The notes under the pieces are model-generated. The model worked only from the letters and a program-made list of their open reading frames with translations, was not told where the DNA came from and did no database searches. This document shows, one piece after another, positions 4,340-53,805 of a DNA stretch of 58,830 bases; the first letter of the stretch is position 1; each line of letters starts with the position of its first letter. The DNA is from Candidatus Doudnabacteria bacterium. GTDB taxonomy: Bacteria > Patescibacteriota > Doudnabacteria > UBA920 > O2-02-FULL-48-8. The stretch covers positions 1 to 58,830 of the forward strand of contig JBDTSL010000005.1 in NCBI GenBank assembly GCA_039931165.1. Reading direction: 5' to 3'. A program made the translations under genes and the position numbers.

Positions 4340-5254
4340 CTATATCACTCGTTGGTTGAAATTATGTGTGGCTAATAAGATCGTGATCAGCAGCGCCATC
4401 ATCGCCAGGTATTCAAACACGACCACGCGCGATAGAGTTTTGTCCAGATGATTATGGAGCAGGCCCCAGAACATATTGTAAACCGCCAGCATCACCAGCC
4501 CGGCGGTAAAATATTCATAGTTCCAGAAACTATAGACCCAGAGCGATACGAGGCCCATGGCCAATGCGATGATCACGATCCAGATGAAAATCGAAAAGTT
4601 CAACAGATTGTGCTGGAACAATGCCTGGTAGATCAAAAGAAAGGTCACGGATGAAGCCGCGGTAAATAAAAAGAAAGCGTCATAGCCGAAATGTATGGTG
4701 ACCCCGACAATTGCGGAATAGATCAGAAATGCGGTAAATAATTTTACCACGGACAAGAGTCTGATCCAGTGGTGCAGGACTTCCATCCGCCGGCTGATCT
4801 GCTCTTTCATGAACCAATAGGCCACGGCTAAAGCAATGGTTGAAGACACAACCATAAACTGTTTTATGGTAATGTTGAATGGATTAAGCAAGATCAGCAC
4901 AACTGTTGACCAGTAGATCAATCCCGGCAAGACAAGATAATTTTGATAGTGCCGCAGATACTCCCATCGCCTGATGTGACTAAAGCGTTCTTTGAAAGCT
5001 TCCCAGACCATCTTGGCTCCTTTAAAGTTGACCGAAGCCTCTGCCAGCACTCCCCGCTTCTTCAAATGCAGATCAAATATGAATGTCAGCCAAAAAATAT
5101 GGAACGCGTAAACATAAAATGACAACAAAACGGCAATTTTAAGCTGATAAATGCCAGTGATATAGCTGACAGCTTCGAAACCCAAAAGCGCTCCAAAAGT
5201 GGCTATCGAAGCTGAAAGATATTTTTGGTGTTGTTCGCCGATCAAAGGTCTCAT
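4340..5254 (-). CDS. Polytopic membrane protein (DUF5656-like C-terminus, tentative)
   Basis: 304 aa with many hydrophobic helices; C-terminal half resembles 11595-12302. Confidence 0.7.
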   Translation of the reverse strand: MRPLIGEQHQKYLSASIATFGALLGFEAVSYITGIYQLKIAVLLSFYVYAFHIFWLTFIFDLHLKKRGVLAEASVNFKGAKMVWEAFKERFSHIRRWEYLRHYQNYLVLPGLIYWSTVVLILLNPFNITIKQFMVVSSTIALAVAYWFMKEQISRRMEVLHHWIRLLSVVKLFTAFLIYSAIVGVTIHFGYDAFFLFTAASSVTFLLIYQALFQHNLLNFSIFIWIVIIALAMGLVSLWVYSFWNYEYFTAGLVMLAVYNMFWGLLHNHLDKTLSRVVVFEYLAMMALLITILLATHNFNQRVI

Positions 5255-5259
5255 GATAT

Positions 5260-5336
5260 CGCATTTGCGAGGAGCGTTAGCGACGAAGCAATCTTAGATA
5301 AGATCGCCACACCTGCTTCGTAGGCTCGCGAATTCG
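5260..5336. repeat. REP-like palindrome, family A (copy 1)
   Basis: cgcatttgcgaggagcgttagcgacgaagcaatct...agatcgccac...gctcgcgaattcg. Confidence 0.85.
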
Positions 5337-5340
5337 TTAA

Positions 5341-6102
5341 TTATTTTTCAAATTTTAGCAAATTCTTTTCATTCCGTTTCCCCAAGGCTTTGCGGGCCCA
5401 AAAAACCCCTGACCTGTAGAGACTTTCAAATGTTCCGGCGTCGGACCAGAATCCTTCAAGCCTAGCCCAGCGCATTTTTCCGTCTTCAATATATAGATTG
5501 TTGACATCCGTTATTTCCAGTTGGCCACGGCCGGATGGTTTGATTTTTTTTATGAGCTTGAAAACTTTGTTGTCAAAGATATAAAGCCCGGTCACGGCCA
5601 GGTTGCTTTTTGGCTTCTTGGGTTTTTCCTCAATACCTAAAATCCTGTTCGGATCGGTCTTATCCAACTTCGCTATGCCGAACCGATGAGGATCTTCCAC
5701 TTCCTTAAGAAACACCAGAGCTCCGTCTTTGAAATTTTGTACTTCTTTGCGGATGTTTGCATCAGTGCAATTATCCCCCAAAATAACCGTGACCGGTCCA
5801 TTATCGGCAAAACTTTCCGTAAGCCTCAGCGCGTCCGCGATACCGGCATCCCCAGAATCCTGATAGGCAAACTCCAGATGTTTGATCCCGAATTCCTTGC
5901 CATTTCTCAAAACCCGGATAAAATCTCCGGCATGCGGACCGCCGACCACGACCATGATGTTCGTGATCCCGGCCCGCAGCAGCGTGCGGATAGGATAATA
6001 AATCATCGGTTTATCGTAAACCGGCAATAAATGCTTGTTTGTGGCATGGGTCAAAGGATATAGCCTTGTTCCCAAGCCGCCCGCTAAAATAATGCCTTTC
6101 AT
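5341..6102 (-). CDS. rfbA: Glucose-1-phosphate thymidylyltransferase (short form)
   Basis: ILAGGLGTRLYPLT...KHLLPVYDKPMI; last gene of the rml cluster. Confidence 0.9.
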   Translation of the reverse strand: MKGIILAGGLGTRLYPLTHATNKHLLPVYDKPMIYYPIRTLLRAGITNIMVVVGGPHAGDFIRVLRNGKEFGIKHLEFAYQDSGDAGIADALRLTESFADNGPVTVILGDNCTDANIRKEVQNFKDGALVFLKEVEDPHRFGIAKLDKTDPNRILGIEEKPKKPKSNLAVTGLYIFDNKVFKLIKKIKPSGRGQLEITDVNNLYIEDGKMRWARLEGFWSDAGTFESLYRSGVFWARKALGKRNEKNLLKFEK

Positions 6103-6106
6103 AATT

Positions 6107-6934
6107 CTACCCTAAGTATTCTTTCAATGCTTCGGTCCAAGGCCTCAGCTGGATGAATTTATTGTTATTTAAAACCCCGTACTGGGGCCTGGCGGCTTTG
6201 CGAGGGAATTTGTCCCGTGATATGGCTGTTAATGTTACTTTCACATTCTTGATCTGAAATATTTCGTTCGCCCACTGATACCAGCTCGTCTGGCCGGCGT
6301 TAGTCAGATGATAAATTCCGAATGGTTTTTTTTCTTCAAGCAATGCTCTTGTGGATTGTGCCAGATCCAGGCAATATGTCGGCTGGGCAAATTCATCTTT
6401 GATCGCTTCGATGGCTTTGCCTTCATCAGCCTTCTTCAGCATCATGGCCACAAAGCTGGTTTTTCCATGACTTCCCGGCTTGCCATAAAGCCACGCCGTC
6501 CGGATGATATAAAACTTGTCGGTTTTCCCCTGAACCTCATTTTCACCTAAGATCTTTGATTTGCCGTATATTGAACGCGCGTTCGGCAGATCATCTTCAT
6601 TATATCCCTCTTGGTTCGTTCCATCAAAAACATAATGCGTGCTGAAATGGACAAAAACCGCGCCCACCTCAGATGCTGCTTTAGCCAAATAACCGGGCGC
6701 ATAGCCATTTACGGATTCGGCAAGCTCCCTTTCCTCTTCAGCCTTATCCACCGCGTTATATGCGGCGCAATTAATAACCAAACCGGGCTTCAATTCGGCA
6801 ATTTTTTTACTGACCACTTCTTCGTCGGTGATGTCAAGATCGAATTTGCCCCAGCCGACGACTTCCTGGTCTTTGTAAAGATCAAGGAAAGCCTCCCCCA
6901 AACTTCCTTTGGCTCCCAAAATCAAAATTTTCAT
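6107..6934 (-). CDS. rfbD: dTDP-4-dehydrorhamnose reductase
   Basis: GAKGSLG, NCAAYNAVDKAE, YGKSK. Confidence 0.93.
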   Translation of the reverse strand: MKILILGAKGSLGEAFLDLYKDQEVVGWGKFDLDITDEEVVSKKIAELKPGLVINCAAYNAVDKAEEERELAESVNGYAPGYLAKAASEVGAVFVHFSTHYVFDGTNQEGYNEDDLPNARSIYGKSKILGENEVQGKTDKFYIIRTAWLYGKPGSHGKTSFVAMMLKKADEGKAIEAIKDEFAQPTYCLDLAQSTRALLEEKKPFGIYHLTNAGQTSWYQWANEIFQIKNVKVTLTAISRDKFPRKAARPQYGVLNNNKFIQLRPWTEALKEYLG

Positions 6935-7488
6935 AAAGGTTTAACATCTTTCAGCATAGGGTGTTTCATGTCATTATCTGAAATGATGGCTTTATCCAAA
7001 GCAATGGGCCACTCAACCGACAGATCCGTATCCGCCAGATTCACGAATTTATATTCCGACAACTTTTCCGCGGACCAAAAATCATTTACCAAATAAGAAT
7101 AATAAGTTCCCTCCTCCAAGGTCTGGAAAGAATTTGCGACACCCCGGGGAACAAACGCGGTTTTGTTCTCGTCAATCGTCATTTCAACTTTTTTGCCGAA
7201 ATTGCCGCCCTTCCGCAGATCCACAAACACGGCAAATATCCGGCCGGTAATTATTCCGATATATTTCTCCCACGGTTCCGCGTGAAATCCGCGGGTAACG
7301 CCGACAGCCCTGTTGAAAGAAACGCTGTGCTGGACCGGCACAAAACCATTTGGAAATCCTGCGGCAACCAATTTTTCCCTCTGGTATTTTTCCTGAAACC
7401 AACCCCTAGAGTCTTCTATCATATTGACATCAATCTCCAAAAGTCCGGGAATTGCGGTATTGTTGATTTTAAATTCAGTGGTTTGCAT
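6931..7488 (-). CDS. rfbC: dTDP-4-dehydrorhamnose 3,5-epimerase
   Basis: DSRGWFQE, TRGFHAEPW, GVANSFQTL. Confidence 0.93.
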   Translation of the reverse strand: MQTTEFKINNTAIPGLLEIDVNMIEDSRGWFQEKYQREKLVAAGFPNGFVPVQHSVSFNRAVGVTRGFHAEPWEKYIGIITGRIFAVFVDLRKGGNFGKKVEMTIDENKTAFVPRGVANSFQTLEEGTYYSYLVNDFWSAEKLSEYKFVNLADTDLSVEWPIALDKAIISDNDMKHPMLKDVKPL

Positions 7489-7493
7489 AGGTT

Positions 7494-7556
7494 AGATTGC
7501 TTCGTCGGCTTCGCCTCCTCGCAAATGCGCATCTGCGAGCGAAGCGAAGCAGTCTA
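7494..7556. repeat. REP-like palindrome, family A (copy 2, two half-units)
   Basis: agattgcttcgtcggcttcgcctcctcgcaaatgcg followed by catctgcgagcgaagcgaagcagtcta, between rfbB and rfbC. Confidence 0.8.
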
Positions 7557-7564
7557 TCTAAGAT

Positions 7565-8542
7565 TTATATTGCGTCTGGTAATAATTTTTTCCACCAGGA
7601 TTCGTTTTTTTGATACCAGTCTATCGTATCTTTGATCCCTTTTTCAAAATCGATCTCCGGTTTCCAGCCAAGGTCTTTCTTGATTTTTGAACAATCGAGC
7701 AAATATCTTTTATCATGCTGGAGCCTGTCTGGAACATAAGTTTTTAAATTTTTATCTTCCCCCAGAATATCCAATATTTTATCGGCAATTTCTTCCACGG
7801 ATTTCTCAACTCCACTGCCAATATTATAGGATTCTCCGACCTTGCCTTTCTGCAAAATCAGATCAATTGCCGCGCAATGATCTTGAACATGCAGCCATTC
7901 ACGTTTATTCTGGCTGGTCTTAAACAAAGGCAAAGATTTGTTCTGGAGTGCATTTGTCGCAAACAGTGGGATTATTTTTTCCGGAAACTGGTAGGGGCCA
8001 TAATTGTTGCTGCAATGACTGATCGTAACAGGTAACTTATATGTATGGAAATAAGCCATTACCTCGTGATTTGCCCCGGCCTTAGAAGCGTTATAAGGGG
8101 TTTTGGGCAAGAACGGATCGGTTTCCTTGAATGCCCTGGTTTCGTCTAATTCCAGATCGCCGAATACCTCACATGTTGAAATATGATGAAAACGCTTAAC
8201 TTTAGCTTGCCTGGCCGCTTCCAAAAGAATCTGTGTCCCCAAAACATTAGTACGGACAAAAATTCCAGGATCCTCAATAGCCCGATCATTATGCGATTCC
8301 GCGGCAAAATTTACTACAACATCAACATCCTTCATTAGGTCTTTGGCCAAATTCAAATCACCTATGTCCCCTTTTATGAATTTATAGCGCGGATTTTGTT
8401 CATACAGTTTTACATTTTCCAGGTTGCCGGCATAGGTCAATTTGTCCAAATTTACAATTTCGCAATCAGGATATTTTTCAAAAAGAAAATGGATAAAATT
8501 GGAGCCAATAAACCCAGCCCCGCCGGTGATAAGATATTTCAT
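7565..8542 (-). CDS. rfbB: dTDP-glucose 4,6-dehydratase
   Basis: TGGAGFIGSNF, LDKLTYAGN, FAAESH, YNASK, REWLHVQDH. Confidence 0.93.
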   Translation of the reverse strand: MKYLITGGAGFIGSNFIHFLFEKYPDCEIVNLDKLTYAGNLENVKLYEQNPRYKFIKGDIGDLNLAKDLMKDVDVVVNFAAESHNDRAIEDPGIFVRTNVLGTQILLEAARQAKVKRFHHISTCEVFGDLELDETRAFKETDPFLPKTPYNASKAGANHEVMAYFHTYKLPVTISHCSNNYGPYQFPEKIIPLFATNALQNKSLPLFKTSQNKREWLHVQDHCAAIDLILQKGKVGESYNIGSGVEKSVEEIADKILDILGEDKNLKTYVPDRLQHDKRYLLDCSKIKKDLGWKPEIDFEKGIKDTIDWYQKNESWWKKLLPDAI

Positions 8543-11594: not shown

Positions 11595-12302
11595 TTATCT
11601 GAGCGGCCGCCAGGCGGCGGTGGATAATGTCAAAAGCAAAACTATCGCTACTAAAGTCAGCTGCCAATAAATTTTTTGCCTGGTCAGTCTGCCGAAAAAA
11701 GCCGAAAAAGAAAACAGCCAAAGCAGGTAGAATATGCAGAACAACACTACACTGTCGACAAAAAAGTACGTCGGCCAAAAGATCAATCCCCAGGCCGCTT
11801 CAGAGATCACCAAGGCGTGCATTAAATAAAAATAACGTTTTGCCGGCAAGGAAAACCCGGCGAAACCCTGGACTGAGAGCAAATAGGTCGCCAAAAAAAC
11901 CAAGGGGACAAACCACCAGGCCTTGAGGTTAAAATAAAACTGCGCTGCGAACAGCCCCAAATACAGTCCGAACGCGGACAGCAAAAACATATTCTGCAGA
12001 AAGTGGCTTTCGTGCCCGAGTTTCATTTCCAGGACATAAAACAGCAGGCAGGCGGCGACCAAGAAAACAATGCGAAAATTCGGATCGGCTATGACCGCAA
12101 ACACGCTTGCCACTCCCAACAGATAAATTGTCGGCAACAATAAATGAGGCCAGGTGAAATTCAGCCTTTTGAAATTGATCGCAAATACGGCTAAAATTAG
12201 AACCACTATTGATGCGGTATAAATATATTGATTCCCTTGGCTTCCGAGAAGCACGAAAAAAAGCAGAAAGGCCAAAGTAATTGATGAGATTCTAGTGAAC
12301 AT
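11595..12302 (-). CDS. Polytopic membrane protein (DUF5656-like, tentative)
   Basis: 235 aa with about 8 TM helices; EAAWGLIFWP motif. Confidence 0.7.
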   Translation of the reverse strand: MFTRISSITLAFLLFFVLLGSQGNQYIYTASIVVLILAVFAINFKRLNFTWPHLLLPTIYLLGVASVFAVIADPNFRIVFLVAACLLFYVLEMKLGHESHFLQNMFLLSAFGLYLGLFAAQFYFNLKAWWFVPLVFLATYLLSVQGFAGFSLPAKRYFYLMHALVISEAAWGLIFWPTYFFVDSVVLFCIFYLLWLFSFSAFFGRLTRQKIYWQLTLVAIVLLLTLSTAAWRPLR

Positions 12303-12350: not shown

Positions 12351-12444
12351 CGCATTTGCGAGGAGCCCCGACTTGTCGGGATGACGAAGCAATCTTGTCA
12401 TTGGATAGACTGCCACGCCTCGCTTCGCGAGGCTCGGAGATGCG
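12351..12444. repeat. REP-like palindrome, family A (copy 3)
   Basis: cgcatttgcgaggagc-ccgacttgtcgg-gatgacgaagcaatct...agactgccacgcctcgcttcgcgaggctcggagatgcg. Confidence 0.85.
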
Positions 12445-12449
12445 GTTTT

Positions 12450-13295
12450 TTATGTGACTTGGCTTTGCTTTGCAAAAATTATTGCCCCTGAAATCAGGAA
12501 CAAAACCGCGGCCACCACCTGGTCGACACGGAAGCCCGAGACAAAGAAACTATCCAAACGGATCGCCTCGATAAAAAATCTGCCCAAAGAATACAGGAGC
12601 AAATACGACCAGCCAATAATGCCGCTTTTCGCTTTCCCGGCCAATCTGCTCAGGATCAAAAAAACAGCAATATCAAGCAAGGCCTCGTAAAGAAAAGCCG
12701 GATGAAAAAAATTACTGGACGAATATTCAACCGGGCGGTACTTCGGAGCAATATACAGTTTCCAGGGCAAATTCGTGGGAATGCCGAATGCTTCCTGATT
12801 TACAAAATTCCCGAATCGTCCAACCGCCTGAGCCAAAGGAAGAGACAAGGCAATAAGATCAAAAAGCTGATAAAAACTAAATGCTTTTTTCCGCGAATAA
12901 AAATAGCCGAACACCAGTCCTGATAGAATCCCTCCGTAAATAGAAAGTCCCCCATGCCAGATCTTATAAATCTCGGAAGGGTTATGGGAAAAATACGAAG
13001 AATAATTAAAAATAACGTAATATACACGGGCGCCAATAATACCCGCGATTACTGCCCAAAAGGCGAAATCATCTATATCGGTTTTGCTGATGCCAAACCT
13101 CCAGGAATTCTTCCGCGTCAAAAAATACGCCGCCAGGATGCTTGATGCCATGATCAAGCCATACCAGCGGATCTGAATCGGCCCAGCGCTCAAAATCGGA
13201 TTTAAAATCAGCCGGCCGGTAAACGCCGGGATGAACAAAAAATAAATCAGCACTACTGCCGCCACAATACCGACCATCCAATAAATCTTTTTCAT
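12450..13295 (-). CDS. lgt: Prolipoprotein diacylglyceryl transferase
   Basis: IRWYG, IGARVYYV, HGGLSIYGG, GRFGNFVNQE, HPAFLYE. Confidence 0.95.
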   Translation of the reverse strand: MKKIYWMVGIVAAVVLIYFLFIPAFTGRLILNPILSAGPIQIRWYGLIMASSILAAYFLTRKNSWRFGISKTDIDDFAFWAVIAGIIGARVYYVIFNYSSYFSHNPSEIYKIWHGGLSIYGGILSGLVFGYFYSRKKAFSFYQLFDLIALSLPLAQAVGRFGNFVNQEAFGIPTNLPWKLYIAPKYRPVEYSSSNFFHPAFLYEALLDIAVFLILSRLAGKAKSGIIGWSYLLLYSLGRFFIEAIRLDSFFVSGFRVDQVVAAVLFLISGAIIFAKQSQVT

Positions 13296-16148: not shown

Positions 16149-16613
16149 ATGGCTATCTCAAAACAATTAGAAAAGCTGCTTAAAATCAATAAAGTCAAAT
16201 ATGAAGTTGCGGAACACCGAAAGGTCTTCACGGCTTTTGATTCAGCAGAAACGCAGGATATCAAGCTTTCCGAAGTGGCCAAAGCCGTACTACTTAAAGG
16301 GAAGAAAAATTTATATCTCGCGGTTTTACCCGCCGGCAACAACTGTGACTTCAAGGCCCTGGGGAAACTGGCCGGTGACAAACTATCGATGGCAAAGGAA
16401 AAGGATATCACTACCAAACTTAAGACAAAGATCGGCTTACTCCCGCCGTTTGGATCTTTGTTTGAACTGCCGATGTTCATCGACAAAAAACTCTTAAAAA
16501 ATAAAGAGATCAACCTTCCGGCGGGTTCTTACACCGAATCTGTAATTATGAAAGTCAAGGATTATTTGGCTCTTGAGAAACCAGTAGAAGGCAATTTCGC
16601 AATAAAAAAATAG
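16149..16613 (+). CDS. YbaK/prolyl-tRNA editing domain protein
   Basis: EHRKVFTA...VAKAVLLK...LAVLPA...LLPPFG. Confidence 0.85.
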   Translation: MAISKQLEKLLKINKVKYEVAEHRKVFTAFDSAETQDIKLSEVAKAVLLKGKKNLYLAVLPAGNNCDFKALGKLAGDKLSMAKEKDITTKLKTKIGLLPPFGSLFELPMFIDKKLLKNKEINLPAGSYTESVIMKVKDYLALEKPVEGNFAIKK

Positions 16614-16614
16614 T

Positions 16615-16744
16615 TGTCTTTGCGAGCGACCGATTCGATAAGGTTTAACCTAAGCGGTCGCGAAGCAATCTCTTTTGATCAAGTATATAGATTGCTTCGT
16701 CGGCCACAAAACGAAACCTTATAATCGGCCTCCTCGCAAAGACA
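16615..16744. repeat. REP-like palindrome, family A (copy 4, expanded)
   Basis: tgtctttgcgag...cgaagcaatct...agattgcttcg...ctcgcaaagaca. Confidence 0.85.
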
Positions 16745-16759
16745 AGTTGTTGTTAAACT

Positions 16760-17458
16760 ATGCAAATAAAAACCGAACAATTCGAAGGGCCGCTTGCCCT
16801 GCTGCTGCAGCTTATCGAAGAACAACAGCTGGACGTGTCAACTCTGGCTTTGGCATCTGTCACCGAACAATTTTTACTTCATGTAAAAAACTTACAAGAA
16901 AAAAATCCCATCAATCTGGCGGATTTTTTGGTCATCGCGGCGAAACTGCTGGTCATCAAGTCTAAATCGCTGCTTCCCGACCTGGATCTCGGGATCGAAG
17001 AGGAAGAAGCTGCGTTTGACCTCACTGCCCAGCTCCTGATCTATAAAAAATATAAAGAGGCCGCAAAATACCTGAAAAAACTGGATCAATACCGGAAGCA
17101 ATTGTGGACCAGAGACGGGGAACTCACCGACCGGGTGACATTTTTACCGGACCCGGACATCAATATTTCGGTGCTTGCCCAAAGCCTGCGGCAACTGGAC
17201 ACGGAGCTGAAAGAGATTATCCGCCTGCCGAAGCAAATAATGAAAGAGGTGGTTTCCATCTCCGATAAAATCGCCCATATCCAAAAGCTGATCTCGGAGC
17301 AATTGGAAACTTCCCTGTCCAGCCTGCTGAAAGGCGCCAAAACCAAAACCGAGGTCATTGTGACATTTTTAGCGGTACTGGAACTGACGAAGCAAAGAAT
17401 TTTGGTAGTGGAACAGAGCGAAATTTTCGGAGATGTGATTATTAGAAAAACCAACTAA
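16760..17458 (+). CDS. scpA: Segregation and condensation protein A
   Basis: FEGPLALLLQLI...LADFLVIAAKLLVIKSKSLLP...FLAVLELTK. Confidence 0.95.
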   Translation: MQIKTEQFEGPLALLLQLIEEQQLDVSTLALASVTEQFLLHVKNLQEKNPINLADFLVIAAKLLVIKSKSLLPDLDLGIEEEEAAFDLTAQLLIYKKYKEAAKYLKKLDQYRKQLWTRDGELTDRVTFLPDPDINISVLAQSLRQLDTELKEIIRLPKQIMKEVVSISDKIAHIQKLISEQLETSLSSLLKGAKTKTEVIVTFLAVLELTKQRILVVEQSEIFGDVIIRKTN

Positions 17459-25436: not shown

Positions 25437-25570
25437 TTGGTGACCCCACCGGGAATCGGTTCGCCGCTTAAGCGGCTCAAACCCGGGGCAGCGACGAATG
25501 CTACGAGCGCTCGCATTCGTCGTCGTTCGGCTACGGCATAGGCCTTGCCTCACTTCTGCCCTTCGATTCC
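25437..25570 (-). mobile_element. tRNA-linked structured mini-element (tRNA-Glu copy)
   Basis: 22-bp direct repeat of the tRNA 3' end (25437-25458 = 25594-25615); inverted T-loop copy at 25562-25570; 103-nt core homologous to 48939-49042. Confidence 0.75.
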
Positions 25571-25594: not shown

Positions 25595-25669
25595 TGGTGA
25601 CCCCACCGGGAATCGAACCCGGATTCTAGCGTTGAGAACGCTATGTCCTAACCGTTAGACGATAGGGCC
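25595..25669 (-). tRNA. tRNA-Glu (CTC)
   Basis: Cloverleaf; anticodon loop TT-CTC-AA; GGTTCGATTCC; encoded CCA; TTGAAT-17-TATAAT promoter at 25683-25711. Confidence 0.95.
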
Positions 25670-48795: not shown

Positions 48796-48882
48796 GGGCA
48801 GGTAGCGAAGTGGTCAAACGCGGCTGACTGTAAATCAGCTGGCCTTGCGCCTTCATAGGTTCGAATCCTATCCTGCCCACCA
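48796..48882 (+). tRNA. tRNA-Tyr (GTA)
   Basis: gctga-CT-GTA-AA-tcagc arm; long variable arm; GGTTCGAATCC; encoded CCA. Confidence 0.95.
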
Positions 48883-48922
48883 GAAAAAAACTTTTGGCTT
48901 TTTGCCAAAGGTTTTTTTCTTT

Positions 48923-49071
48923 AGGATAGGATTCGAACGGGCAGCAGCGAGACGAGGCATCAGCCGAAGTCGAGCGCCGATGAAAGCGAGCGCTCGCAGC
49001 TTTCAGCGCTGCCCCGTACATGAGCGCATCAGCGCGAATCGAGAATCCTATCCTGCCCACCAGAAAAAAAC
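48923..49071 (+). mobile_element. tRNA-linked structured mini-element (tRNA-Tyr copy)
   Basis: 16-nt inverted copy of the T arm (48923-48938); 104-nt core; 29-bp direct repeat 49043-49071 = 48863-48891; terminator hairpins on both sides. Confidence 0.8.
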
Positions 49072-49114
49072 CTTCATCTTCTGATGAAGGTTTTTTTATT
49101 CCACTTACTATTTT

Positions 49115-51850: not shown

Positions 51851-52906
51851 ATGGAACTTCAATATAACCACATAAAAAAAGAATACGACCAGATCCAGGA
51901 TTTACTTTCCAAAACCACTGACCCCAAGAAGTTGGCTACTTTAGGGAAAAAACAATCCGAGCTTTTGCCTATGGTGGAAAAAATCAACCATTTGGGAACG
52001 ACCAAGACCCAGATCGCCGAACACGAAAAAATGATAGCCGATAAATCGGAACTGGCTGACATGGCAGCCGCGGAGTTACCTGCTTTGCAGGCAGAGCGCG
52101 ATAAACTGACAGAGGAACTTCGGGTCGCAATGCTGCCCAGAGATCCATATGACGAAAAAAATATCATCGTCGAGATCAGGGCCGGCGCCGGCGGCGATGA
52201 AGCCGGATTGTTTGCCGCCGAGCTTTTTCGTATGTATTCAAAGTATGCCGAGAAGCTCAAATACAAAGTTGCGGTCCTCAGTTCGAGCAAGACATCAATT
52301 GGCGGATTCAAGGAAATTATTTTCGAGATACTCGGCCGCAAGGCATACTCTAAATTGAAATACGAATCCGGAGTCCATCGCGTGCAGAGAGTTCCGGAAA
52401 CAGAAAAGTCCGGCCGAGTGCATACCTCTACCGCGACCGTGGCCGTCATGCCAGAAATAGAAGAGGCTGATTTTAAGATCGATCCTAAGGATATAAAAAT
52501 GGAAGCGACTACCGCCTCGGGTCATGGCGGGCAGTCGGTCAACACAACTTATTCCGCGGTAAGAATGACCCATCTTCCGACAGGCATCATGGTCGTGATG
52601 CAGGATGAACGCTCTCAGGCCCAGAACCGTGAAAAAGCCATGGATGTCCTGAGAGCCCGGGTTTTGGCCTTGGAAGAAGAACGCAAACGCAAAGAATTAA
52701 GCGACAAGCGGAAATCGCAGATCGGCACCGGCGACAGATCTGAAAAGATCCGGACCTATAACTTTCCTCAGGACCGCATCACCGACCACCGCATTAACCA
52801 AAATTTCAGCCAGATCCAAACGATCATGGACGGCGGCCTCGGCCAGATCACGGACGCTATGATCGCCGAAGATCAGAAGCGCCAGCTTGAAGAAATCGCC
52901 AAATGA
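51851..52906 (+). CDS. prfA: Peptide chain release factor 1
   Basis: [15 protein letters not shown] (PxT), GHGGQSVN (GGQ), [10 protein letters not shown]. Confidence 0.96.
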
Positions 52907-53805
52907 CCATCCGAGAACTATTGAACAAGGCAGAAAAAAAACTGCCAAAAAGCACTTCCCCGAATTTAGACGCGGAAGTGCTTTTGTCGCATGTGCTTGA
53001 TAAGCCCAAAACATATTTGCTTGCCAATCCAAACGATCAAATTTCGCCGAAAACCGAAAAGCAATTTTCGACCCTGGTTGCCCGCAGGCAATCCGGCTGG
53101 CCAGTTCCATATATCACTAACCAAAAAGAATTTTACGGGCGCAAATTCTTTGTGGACAAAAATGTCCTCATTCCCCGCCCGGAAACTGAAGAGCTGGTCG
53201 AATTGGCAATAAAAACTTTAAAGAATAAAAAGAATCTGAAAATTTTGGATATAGGCACCGGCTCGGGGAATATTATTATCTCGCTCGCAAGAAATCTGGA
53301 ATCTAATACCATTGCGAGGAGCGAAGCGACGAAGCAATCTAATCCAAGATCGCCACGCGGCCTCCGGCCGCTCGCGATGGTAAATCTATATTTCGCATCA
53401 GACACTTCAAAAGCCGCACTTAAAGTCGCTAAAAAAAACGCCAAACTCCACAAAACATCTATTCTGTTCAAACAGTCGGACATTTTAAAAGGTTGGAAAG
53501 ATCAGAGCTTCGACGTAATAATTGCCAATCTGCCATATTTGGAAAAAGAAACCGACTCAAGCACAAAATTTGAGCCTAAAACCGCTTTGATCGCAAAGAA
53601 AAAAGGCTTAGCGCTTTACGAAGACCTCTTTACCCAAGTCTCCACCCTCTCCCCTCAACCTTCTACCCTCTTTCTCGAAATCGGCCATGACCAGGGCAAA
53701 CAAATAAAAAAACTGGCAGCAAGATTGCTCCCAGCTTTTGAAACCAAAATTTATAAGGATTTATCCAAATTTGACCGGTACGCCATGCTCAAATCCCAAA
53801 CTTAG
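52903..53805 (+). CDS. prmC: Release factor glutamine methyltransferase with an in-frame palindrome insertion
   Basis: [24 protein letters not shown]; follows prfA. Confidence 0.95.
53308..53381 (+). repeat. REP-like palindrome, family A (copy 5), coding and in frame
   Basis: accattgcgag-gagcgaagcgacgaagcaatct...agatcgccacg...ctcgcgatggt; encodes [25 protein letters not shown]. Confidence 0.9.

Follow-up and report, generated by a model that had tools for sequence, protein, structure and literature searches.

How does a palindromic repeat come to lie inside the coding sequence of a housekeeping enzyme, and what becomes of that enzyme? The question is raised by a prmC gene of a Candidatus Doudnabacteria bacterium (contig JBDTSL010000005.1 of assembly GCA_039931165.1), for which a preliminary description, made from the DNA letters, had proposed that one copy of a dispersed repeat is inserted in frame and adds 25 codons. 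We analysed the whole stretch of 58,830 nt (referred to as the window), the repeat and its relatives in other genomes. The results very probably reflect a dispersed palindrome without genes of its own that landed in the loop between helix alphaA and strand beta2 of PrmC and persists there as a tolerated passenger, with survival at loops acting as the filter. The gene, the insert and its parts are these:

52903..53805, + strand: prmC (release-factor N5-glutamine methyltransferase), an intact open reading frame (ORF) of 300 aa

53308..53382, + strand: net in-frame insert, 75 nt or 25 codons, delimited by the gapless orthologue alignment obtained on its deletion and by the HMMER split

53308..53381, + strand: the palindrome proper, 74 nt, ACCATTGCGAG...CTCGCGATGGT, delimited by sequence reading and fold

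53312..53339, + strand: arm X, consisting of TTGCGAGGAG (53312-53321), the mini-hairpin GCGAAGC (53321-53327) and GACGAAGCAATC (53328-53339)

53348..53381, + strand: arm Y, a 'CACG'-form inverted partner of arm X, consisting of GATCGC-CACG, the hairpin GCGGCC-TCC-GGCCGC (53357-53371) and CTCGCGAT-GGT

The insert separates helix alphaA, which follows the S-adenosylmethionine (SAM)-binding GTGSG motif, from strand beta2 (YFASD). When 53308-53382 was removed, ARNLESN was joined directly to NLYFASD, and the protein aligned without a gap to the uninserted orthologue from locus L004, AKNLARNNQYFASD. In a phmmer search against solved HemK structures, residues 22-130 and 162-273 of the query matched residues 34-141 and 146-260 of T. 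maritima HemK; since the split in this match falls at the insert, the 25-codon excess is placed at alphaA/beta2. The in-frame palindrome of 25 codons was thereby borne out. Its extent had been given as 53308-53381, which holds for the 74-nt palindrome; in net terms, 75 nt were added in frame, up to 53382.

The insert differs in composition from its host gene, with a G+C content of 61% against 41% in the remaining prmC. The encoded peptide is hydrophilic, contains proline and is basic (5 K/R vs 1 D/E), and its first half is predicted to be helical. Compared with shuffled sequences, the palindrome folds strongly as RNA, at -33 kcal/mol on the + strand (z = -3.8) and -41 kcal/mol on the - strand (z = -4.9). 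Four of the six frames of the prmC copy are stop-free, and each frame lacks a stop in 39-63% of the canonical dimers among the matches listed in the family scan described below. Because stop-free frames are common, an open frame needs no special design, just a length divisible by three. An Rfam search at the gathering threshold found no RNA family at the element, and a search of 5.8 billion proteins with the 40 residues around the insert returned the query itself as the sole match.

We investigated whether the host gene is intact. The ORF scored 238.8 bits against the NCBIfam PrmC model TIGR03534, for which the cut-off is 199.1 bits, and its product has a PF17827 PrmC_N domain at the N-terminus followed by a class I methyltransferase domain. 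The GTGSG and NLPY motifs and the acidic FASD were all found, and all 17 invariant positions of the PrmC alignment are retained, as are the near-invariant ones; judged by its sequence, the product is a member of the PrmC family. NLPY occurs in 119 of 120 PrmC relatives, and from this alignment it is the normal form of the clade and not a degenerate one. Frame and NLPY are preserved, as had been claimed. The relatives carry the annotation Candidatus Doudnabacteria, and the top non-self identity is 61-67%.

An AlphaFold2 model of PrmC was built with 119 relatives and had a mean predicted local distance difference test score (pLDDT) of 94.3 and a predicted template modelling score (pTM) of 0.88. 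The top structure found by Foldseek was 2b3t_A, E. coli PrmC from its complex with release factor 1 (RF1), with a TMt of 0.91. The 10-residue blocks over 131-160, within which the insert occupies residues 136-160, had pLDDT values of 78, 67 and 69, and the remainder was above 90. In the model, helix alphaA spans residues 123-146 and is followed by coil up to residue 161. The insert is therefore modelled as a low-confidence extension of the helix plus coil in an otherwise confident fold.

The inserted element belongs to a repeat family with a definite plan. Arm X reads TTGCGAGGAG, a variable hairpin and GACGAAGCAATC; a short spacer follows; and arm Y reads GATYGC(TTCG or CACG), a variable hairpin and CTCGCRA, making it an approximate reverse complement of arm X. 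As a single strand, this dimer can fold into a shape resembling a four-way junction, made up of an outer and an inner helix plus two side hairpins. Judged by sequence, the two arms of the element are joined head-to-head into a dimer of junction-like shape. The form of arm Y seen in prmC, GATYGCCACG-[hairpin]-CTCGCRATGAC, recurs in L013, L068 and L120 among other loci.

To follow the family beyond the window, one genome per species was scanned for arm X, and no mismatch was allowed at its 22 fixed bases. The 22-nt core was found unchanged in at least 120 genome loci from many phyla, and arm X of the prmC copy matches it exactly. Among the matches listed, the cultured carriers were Bradyrhizobium, Pedobacter, Chryseobacterium and Mucilaginibacter, and carriers known as metagenome-assembled genomes (MAGs) came from Chloroflexota, Zixibacteria, Ignavibacteria, Desulfobacterota, Armatimonadota, Omnitrophota, Verrucomicrobiota, Rickettsiales (L034, with a canonical copy) and Patescibacteria. 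The same listed matches comprised 132 copies, of which 72 had the tag CGTCA and 33 the tag TGTCA 5' of the element; CAG or CAT followed arm X (..GCAATC) in 56, a partner arm lay no more than 100 nt away in 102, and the copies shared no flank where they were canonical. The commonest side hairpin, GCGAAGC, is the one carried by the prmC copy (18/132). Of 76 distinct side-hairpin variants, which differed in sequence, 61 were still self-complementary, and the mean outer stem was 2.8 bp vs 0.54 in shuffles. Because these hairpins vary yet stay self-complementary, the sequences point to selection on the single-stranded structure of the family. As the core is unchanged in many phyla, the element is not specific to the Candidate Phyla Radiation (CPR).

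Within the window, the common 14-mer GCGACGAAGCAATC, with up to two mismatches, occurs five times against 0.6 expected. Besides the prmC copy, these four copies were found:

5265..5331, + strand: family copy A1, intergenic, between ORFs 4340-5254 and 5341-6102

7495..7555, - strand: family copy A2, intergenic, between ORFs 6931-7488 and 7565-8542

12356..12445, + strand: family copy A3, intergenic, between ORFs 11595-12302 and 12450-13295; its side hairpin, CCCGACTTGTCGGG, is longer

16618..16743, - strand: family copy A4, intergenic, between ORFs 16149-16613 and 16760-17458; its side hairpins are long and its tag is TGTC

Four of the five copies are thus intergenic, each in a gap between ORFs as the preliminary description had stated, and one lies in frame within a gene. 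Copy A4 folds at -58 kcal/mol (z = -7.3). The end tags are GCAT in A1-A3, TGTC in A4 and TACCA...TGGTA in the prmC copy. In A2 the order of the arms is reversed, Y then X, joined by ATGCGCAT; the other four copies are not arranged in this way. The ends of the prmC copy (53307-53311 and 53378-53382) differ from the canonical CGTCA...TGACG by three transitions per arm, all of them mutually complementary, and a second metagenome locus (loose end) likewise terminates in ...CTCGCGATGGT. In sequence, these ends look like those of a subfamily whose two ends co-change.

We examined the loop in an alignment of 120 PrmC proteins from Doudnabacteria-type relatives. Most of them, with lengths of 272-282 aa, have no extra residues at the alphaA-beta2 loop, and the insert is missing from the nearest relatives, P0002, P0003 and P0005 (61-67% identity); the inserts are patchy on the tree. 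At least eight extra residues were found at this loop in 21 of the 120 relatives. A second hot spot, with 22 inserts, lies directly before the LFLEIG strand, after residue 249-251. Together the two sites hold about 43 of the roughly 67 inserts of at least 8 aa. At the alphaA-beta2 loop, the inserts were of at least eight distinct repeat-derived types. Family-A-type peptides, which belong to the family described here, occur in P0001, P0004, P0011, P0031, P0042 and P0112, and P0023 has a half-length trace, TIARSVATKQS, with no gain in length. Unrelated inserts occupy the same loop in P0012/P0027, P0019/P0049/P0070, P0014, P0063, P0068, P0071, P0069/P0078 and several outgroups. The insertion points at this first site lie 11-14 residues after GTGSG and have no flank motif in common.

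Seven inserted loci, the window counted in, were examined as DNA. All seven were strongly hairpin-forming, and all seven sequenced inserts were stop-free and had a length that is a multiple of three. Family A also occupies this loop in L001 and L002, where its orientation is opposite and the 3' half is read in another frame; L128 carries a decayed family-A copy. The other types at this loop were a GTAG-tagged dimer (L007), a CCCCC/GGGGG multi-hairpin (L006), a further hairpin-repeat type (L005) and a 111-nt multi-hairpin (L129, z = -8.1). A loop of equal length without a palindrome in its DNA did not appear among these cases; each long loop carried a hairpin repeat of its own.

The second hot spot holds family-A peptides and also IPAKAGIQ peptides of CGTC-1 type. 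In P0013 and P0058 the inserts after residue ~249 read IPAKAGIQ... and TPAKTGIQ.... The peptide VIPAKAGI is given for one CGTC-1 repeat of R. conorii in the supplement of PMC3733652, where R. conorii CGTC-1 equals RPE-6, and the match suggests that RPE-6-type repeats also occur in Doudnabacteria PrmC. A single prmC gene, that of P0031 (L001), contains two family-A inserts, L001:3720-3780 and L001:3358-3501, one at the alphaA-beta2 loop and one before LFLEIG (peptide EATRQSFIRSPRDLRSLAMVK). At the second hot spot of the window gene, 53640-53680, the DNA is CT-rich with a rough 7-nt period (ACCCTCT CCCCTCA ACCTTCT ACCCTCT), and TRF called no array at 53640-53680. Look-alikes of the peptide encoded there were seen at the first hot spot in relatives (LSTLHPHPSPLF, LSSLAPRRSALF and YNLQPKSYNLF).

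We propose that a palindromic repeat without genes, made of two CGTC-type arms head-to-head, landed in the short alphaA-beta2 loop of PrmC. With a net length of 75 nt and a stop-free frame, it would have left prmC open. Translated as 25 residues, the insert would lengthen helix alphaA and then form a floppy loop. Going by the standard topology of class I methyltransferases, the loop from alphaA to beta2 would lie at the N-terminal end of the strand and away from the SAM and substrate sites. Since the strand ends that hold cofactor and substrate would be on the opposite side of the sheet from this loop, PrmC is expected to keep working. The insert would be a tolerated passenger rather than an adaptation, and the repeated occupation of two helix-to-strand loops would mark the few places where inserts survive selection. 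Translation of the insert, its neutrality and the nature of the mobilising enzyme are what we infer here.

The recurrence of inserts might instead come from targeting, with the hairpin elements or their mobilising enzyme preferring this part of the prmC DNA; an AT-rich stretch among codons richer in GC could be the cause, or DNA that is transiently single-stranded or structured. At least eight insert types, and two orientations of one family, fall within a span of 2-4 residues, and the concentration of about 43 of some 67 inserts at two sites is what targeting would give. The sequence AATCTA also flanks the window copy on both sides (53300-53305 and 53383-53388); as a 6-base target duplication this pair was rejected, since its 83-nt period would break the frame. 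The insertion points, however, lie up to three codons apart and share no flank motif; a common target is not expected for the GTAG-tagged, CGTC-type and CCCCC/GGGGG families, which are unrelated; and each hot spot is a loop leading from a helix to a strand, which is what a tolerance filter would predict. Because the insertion points vary over 11-14 residues after GTGSG and their flanks lack a common motif, a tolerance filter is the likeliest cause of the recurrence, and targeting appears unlikely.

Less probable still is a single ancient insertion in the common ancestor of these Doudnabacteria, inherited and then lost precisely or overwritten in most lineages, of which the window copy would be an old survivor. 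The family-A-type peptides at the loop of six scattered orthologues and the partial remnant in P0023 fit this account, and palindromes are prone to precise deletion. The nearest sisters, however, show no trace of the insert, and the copies in L001 and L002 are in opposite orientation and have their 3' half in a frame other than that of the window copy. The window copy has kept its four helices intact and has an arm X equal to the pan-bacterial consensus, in contrast to the decayed copy in L128. Unrelated families at one site cannot, moreover, descend from one event.

It is very unlikely that the insert is absent from the mature protein, through removal at the RNA level or cleavage, or that prmC has recently been disabled and is a pseudogene. 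Such an account could draw on the great stability of the hairpin (-33 to -41 kcal/mol), but the 300 codons are open and the invariant positions, NLPY, GTGSG and FASD are kept. Like all seven sequenced orthologue inserts, that of the window is a multiple of three without a stop, a pattern that is the signature of selection on translation. We know of no bacterial mechanism that splices such a hairpin out of mRNA. With TIGR03534 passed, the ORF open and the fold modelled at high confidence, the gene does not look like a pseudogene.

Just as improbable is recruitment of the insert for a function, such as contact with RF1/RF2 or the ribosome, or control of prmC at the RNA level. The basic peptide with its predicted helical first half, and the frequency of alphaA-beta2 loop inserts in the clade, would agree with a function. 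Against this, the loop inserts are unrelated in sequence and length (10-36 aa) and most orthologues have none; the AlphaFold2 confidence of the insert is low (67-78), and the peptide is conserved no further than the DNA repeat dictates. That a high-copy repeat was misthreaded into prmC during assembly is least credible of all: the 30-mer 53310-53339 has a word depth of 120-150 vs ~6 in the flanks, and because of this ~20-fold excess the unitigs break at the core, but contigs of two public runs from a rhizosphere study join prmC to the element on the left (X2 record 9, covering 53100-53339) and on the right (X1 record 3, covering 53310-53600), each with 0 mismatches, the frame is kept, and orthologues from other studies show like inserts.

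Several points weigh against the tolerated-passenger explanation. The whole element is spanned by no single public contig, and the two supporting contigs overlap solely in the high-copy 30-mer; the two runs that back the junctions may also be the assembly's own source. No allele with an empty site was seen in the Logan contigs, which drop rare alleles anyway, and the lack of a close strain makes the insertion undatable. Transcription through the hairpin is presumed, as is a protein that contains the 25 residues, and an mRNA hairpin of -33 to -41 kcal/mol could lower expression, so that neutrality is an assumption. To these is added that the 58,830 nt of the window contain no GIY-YIG homologue or other candidate mobilising gene.

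We compared the family with known repeat systems. The repetitive extragenic palindromes (REPs) with a CGTC tag have a CGTC or TGTC tag (CCTC too), an 8-9-bp stem starting with AT, a 4-5-nt loop and a CCA tail (PMC3733652); they are mostly head-to-head dimers and mostly intergenic (PMC3733652, Di Nocera, De Gregorio & Rocco 2013, BMC Genomics 14:522). In several species they also lie in frame inside genes, where dimers encode 20-30 residues (PMC3733652). The superfamily takes in Neisseria dRS3 and the Rickettsia palindromic elements (RPEs) RPE-4 and RPE-6, with CGTC-1 equal to RPE-6 and CGTC-4 to RPE-4 (PMC3733652). The tag precedes most of the listed copies of the present family, and A4 among the window copies; the AT start of the stem, a CCA-like tail, inverted dimers, and intergenic together with some in-frame copies are features in common. 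In contrast, its stem is 5 bp (ATTGC/GCAAT) and not 8-9 bp, and encloses GAGGAG-[variable hairpin]-GACGAA instead of a 4-5-nt loop; the prmC copy has ACCA where GTCA is expected, at both ends. Its peptides are not in the table of intragenic REP peptides of PMC3733652. Since the tag is found in most listed copies, the tail and dimer habit are shared and the simple stem-loop is not, the family is, from its sequence features, best described as a variant within the CGTC-tagged REP superfamily and not as one of its four published families. The core strings ATTGCGAGGAG, GACGAAGCAATC and related ones are printed in no searchable paper, in which only chance primer matches were found, and a literature search on in-frame palindromes of CPR/Patescibacteria turned up nothing specific.

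The likeness to RPEs drawn in the preliminary description held in part. RPE-1 to RPE-10 are in-frame palindromes in Rickettsia proteins, with RPE-1 of ~150 nt (Ogata et al. 2000, Science 290:347, and Ogata et al. 2002, both as summarised in PMC10969869 and PMC3733652). The present element resembles them as an in-frame palindrome in a housekeeping enzyme, whose fold is predicted to be compatible with it, and in having intergenic copies too; the likeness drawn here is one of behaviour. Its host phylum is of the CPR, it measures 75 nt vs ~150 nt for RPE-1, and it occurs in many phyla, not in one genus. A dispersed palindrome in frame in the loop of an intact enzyme was therefore found in a CPR lineage as claimed, while the phenomenon is not special to Rickettsia (PMC3733652). 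That the element is currently active and generating new protein sequence, as also proposed, would be a reading of the same sequences.

Another system with CGTC-tagged hairpin repeats comprises the SRM/NTS repeats and the Ssn GIY-YIG single-strand nucleases (Chenal et al. 2025, PMC11893778). Its published pattern, HGTCWYN(0-2)YYVSBRHN(0-5)WNVSBRGN(0-2)RNCYNB (PMC11893778), gave no match in the window (0.22 expected in shuffles) and none in the 132 copies among the matches listed, whereas the NTS consensus used as a control matches it; membership in the SRM repeats was rejected. The present family resembles SRM/NTS in that a small GIY-YIG gene lies near its arms in 2 of at least 120 loci, and is unlike it in that the window has no such gene. 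The intragenic ERIC and other enterobacterial elements (Delihas 2007) and the Coxiella QMITEs (PMC5896051) are likewise small and non-autonomous and form in-frame fusions that give new peptide segments. As is typical of miniature inverted-repeat transposable elements driven by a transposase, they have inverted repeats at their termini and duplicated target sites. The present element, being wholly palindromic, has inverted termini, and no convincing target-site duplication was found.

The two loci with a GIY-YIG gene offer a candidate mobiliser. In L077 (258-620), from a Bacillota MAG, a 95-aa ORF (PF01541, 56.8 bits) lies between arms X and Y, which are 332 nt apart, and a homologue of this ORF lies 107 nt from a family copy in L039, from a Pedobacter MAG. 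The arrangement in L077 is possibly an autonomous form of the element. A small GIY-YIG single-strand nuclease would be the leading candidate, and a lead only. A broader proposal starts from a core that is the same from Bradyrhizobium and Pedobacter to Patescibacteria and from side hairpins that covary: that the family is an undescribed, active, pan-bacterial single-stranded DNA element moved by a minimal GIY-YIG nuclease, that hairpin repeats regularly supply loop sequence in ultra-small CPR bacteria, with the two PrmC loops having taken up repeats of CGTC-1/RPE-6-like, GTAG-tagged, present-family and other types many times independently, and that the loop recurrence is partly due to insertion preference. 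We regard this proposal as doubtful.

Further features lie around prmC and elsewhere in the window. The prmC start overlaps the prfA stop by 4 nt, a gene for L25 lies 3' of prmC on the opposite strand, and the order L31-prfA-prmC-(L25) is common to the window and the orthologue loci. The called prfA of L001 has 379 aa, compared with 351 aa elsewhere, and its start overlaps with a family-A copy (L001:1740-1800); from the sequence, the true start is probably downstream, and the copy would then be 5' leader and not coding. The window also contains an 87-nt inverted repeat, 76% complementary (25475-25561 and 48939-49025), and a 55-nt direct repeat, 80% identical (48863-48917 and 49043-49097). Both adjoin tRNA genes, at 25598-25669 and 48796-48879, and by their sequence they could be another repeat family, linked to tRNA genes.

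Reports of in-frame REPs and RPEs go back to 2000, with broad accounts from 2013 on; what is new here is the CPR lineage. Two results go beyond what was known: many repeat families have used one and the same loop, and the core is invariant across phyla, which raises the question of which enzyme recognises the element. Genomes of the CPR are tiny, and each of their genes is thought to be under tight economy. The occurrence of selfish DNA inside coding genes, previously seen in Rickettsia, REP-rich Proteobacteria and Verrucomicrobia, now reaches the Candidate Phyla Radiation. Odd low-confidence loops of 20-35 residues in CPR proteins may be translated repeats, and the recurrence of inserts in PrmC provides a natural map of the loops of Rossmann-type methyltransferases that accept large inserts.

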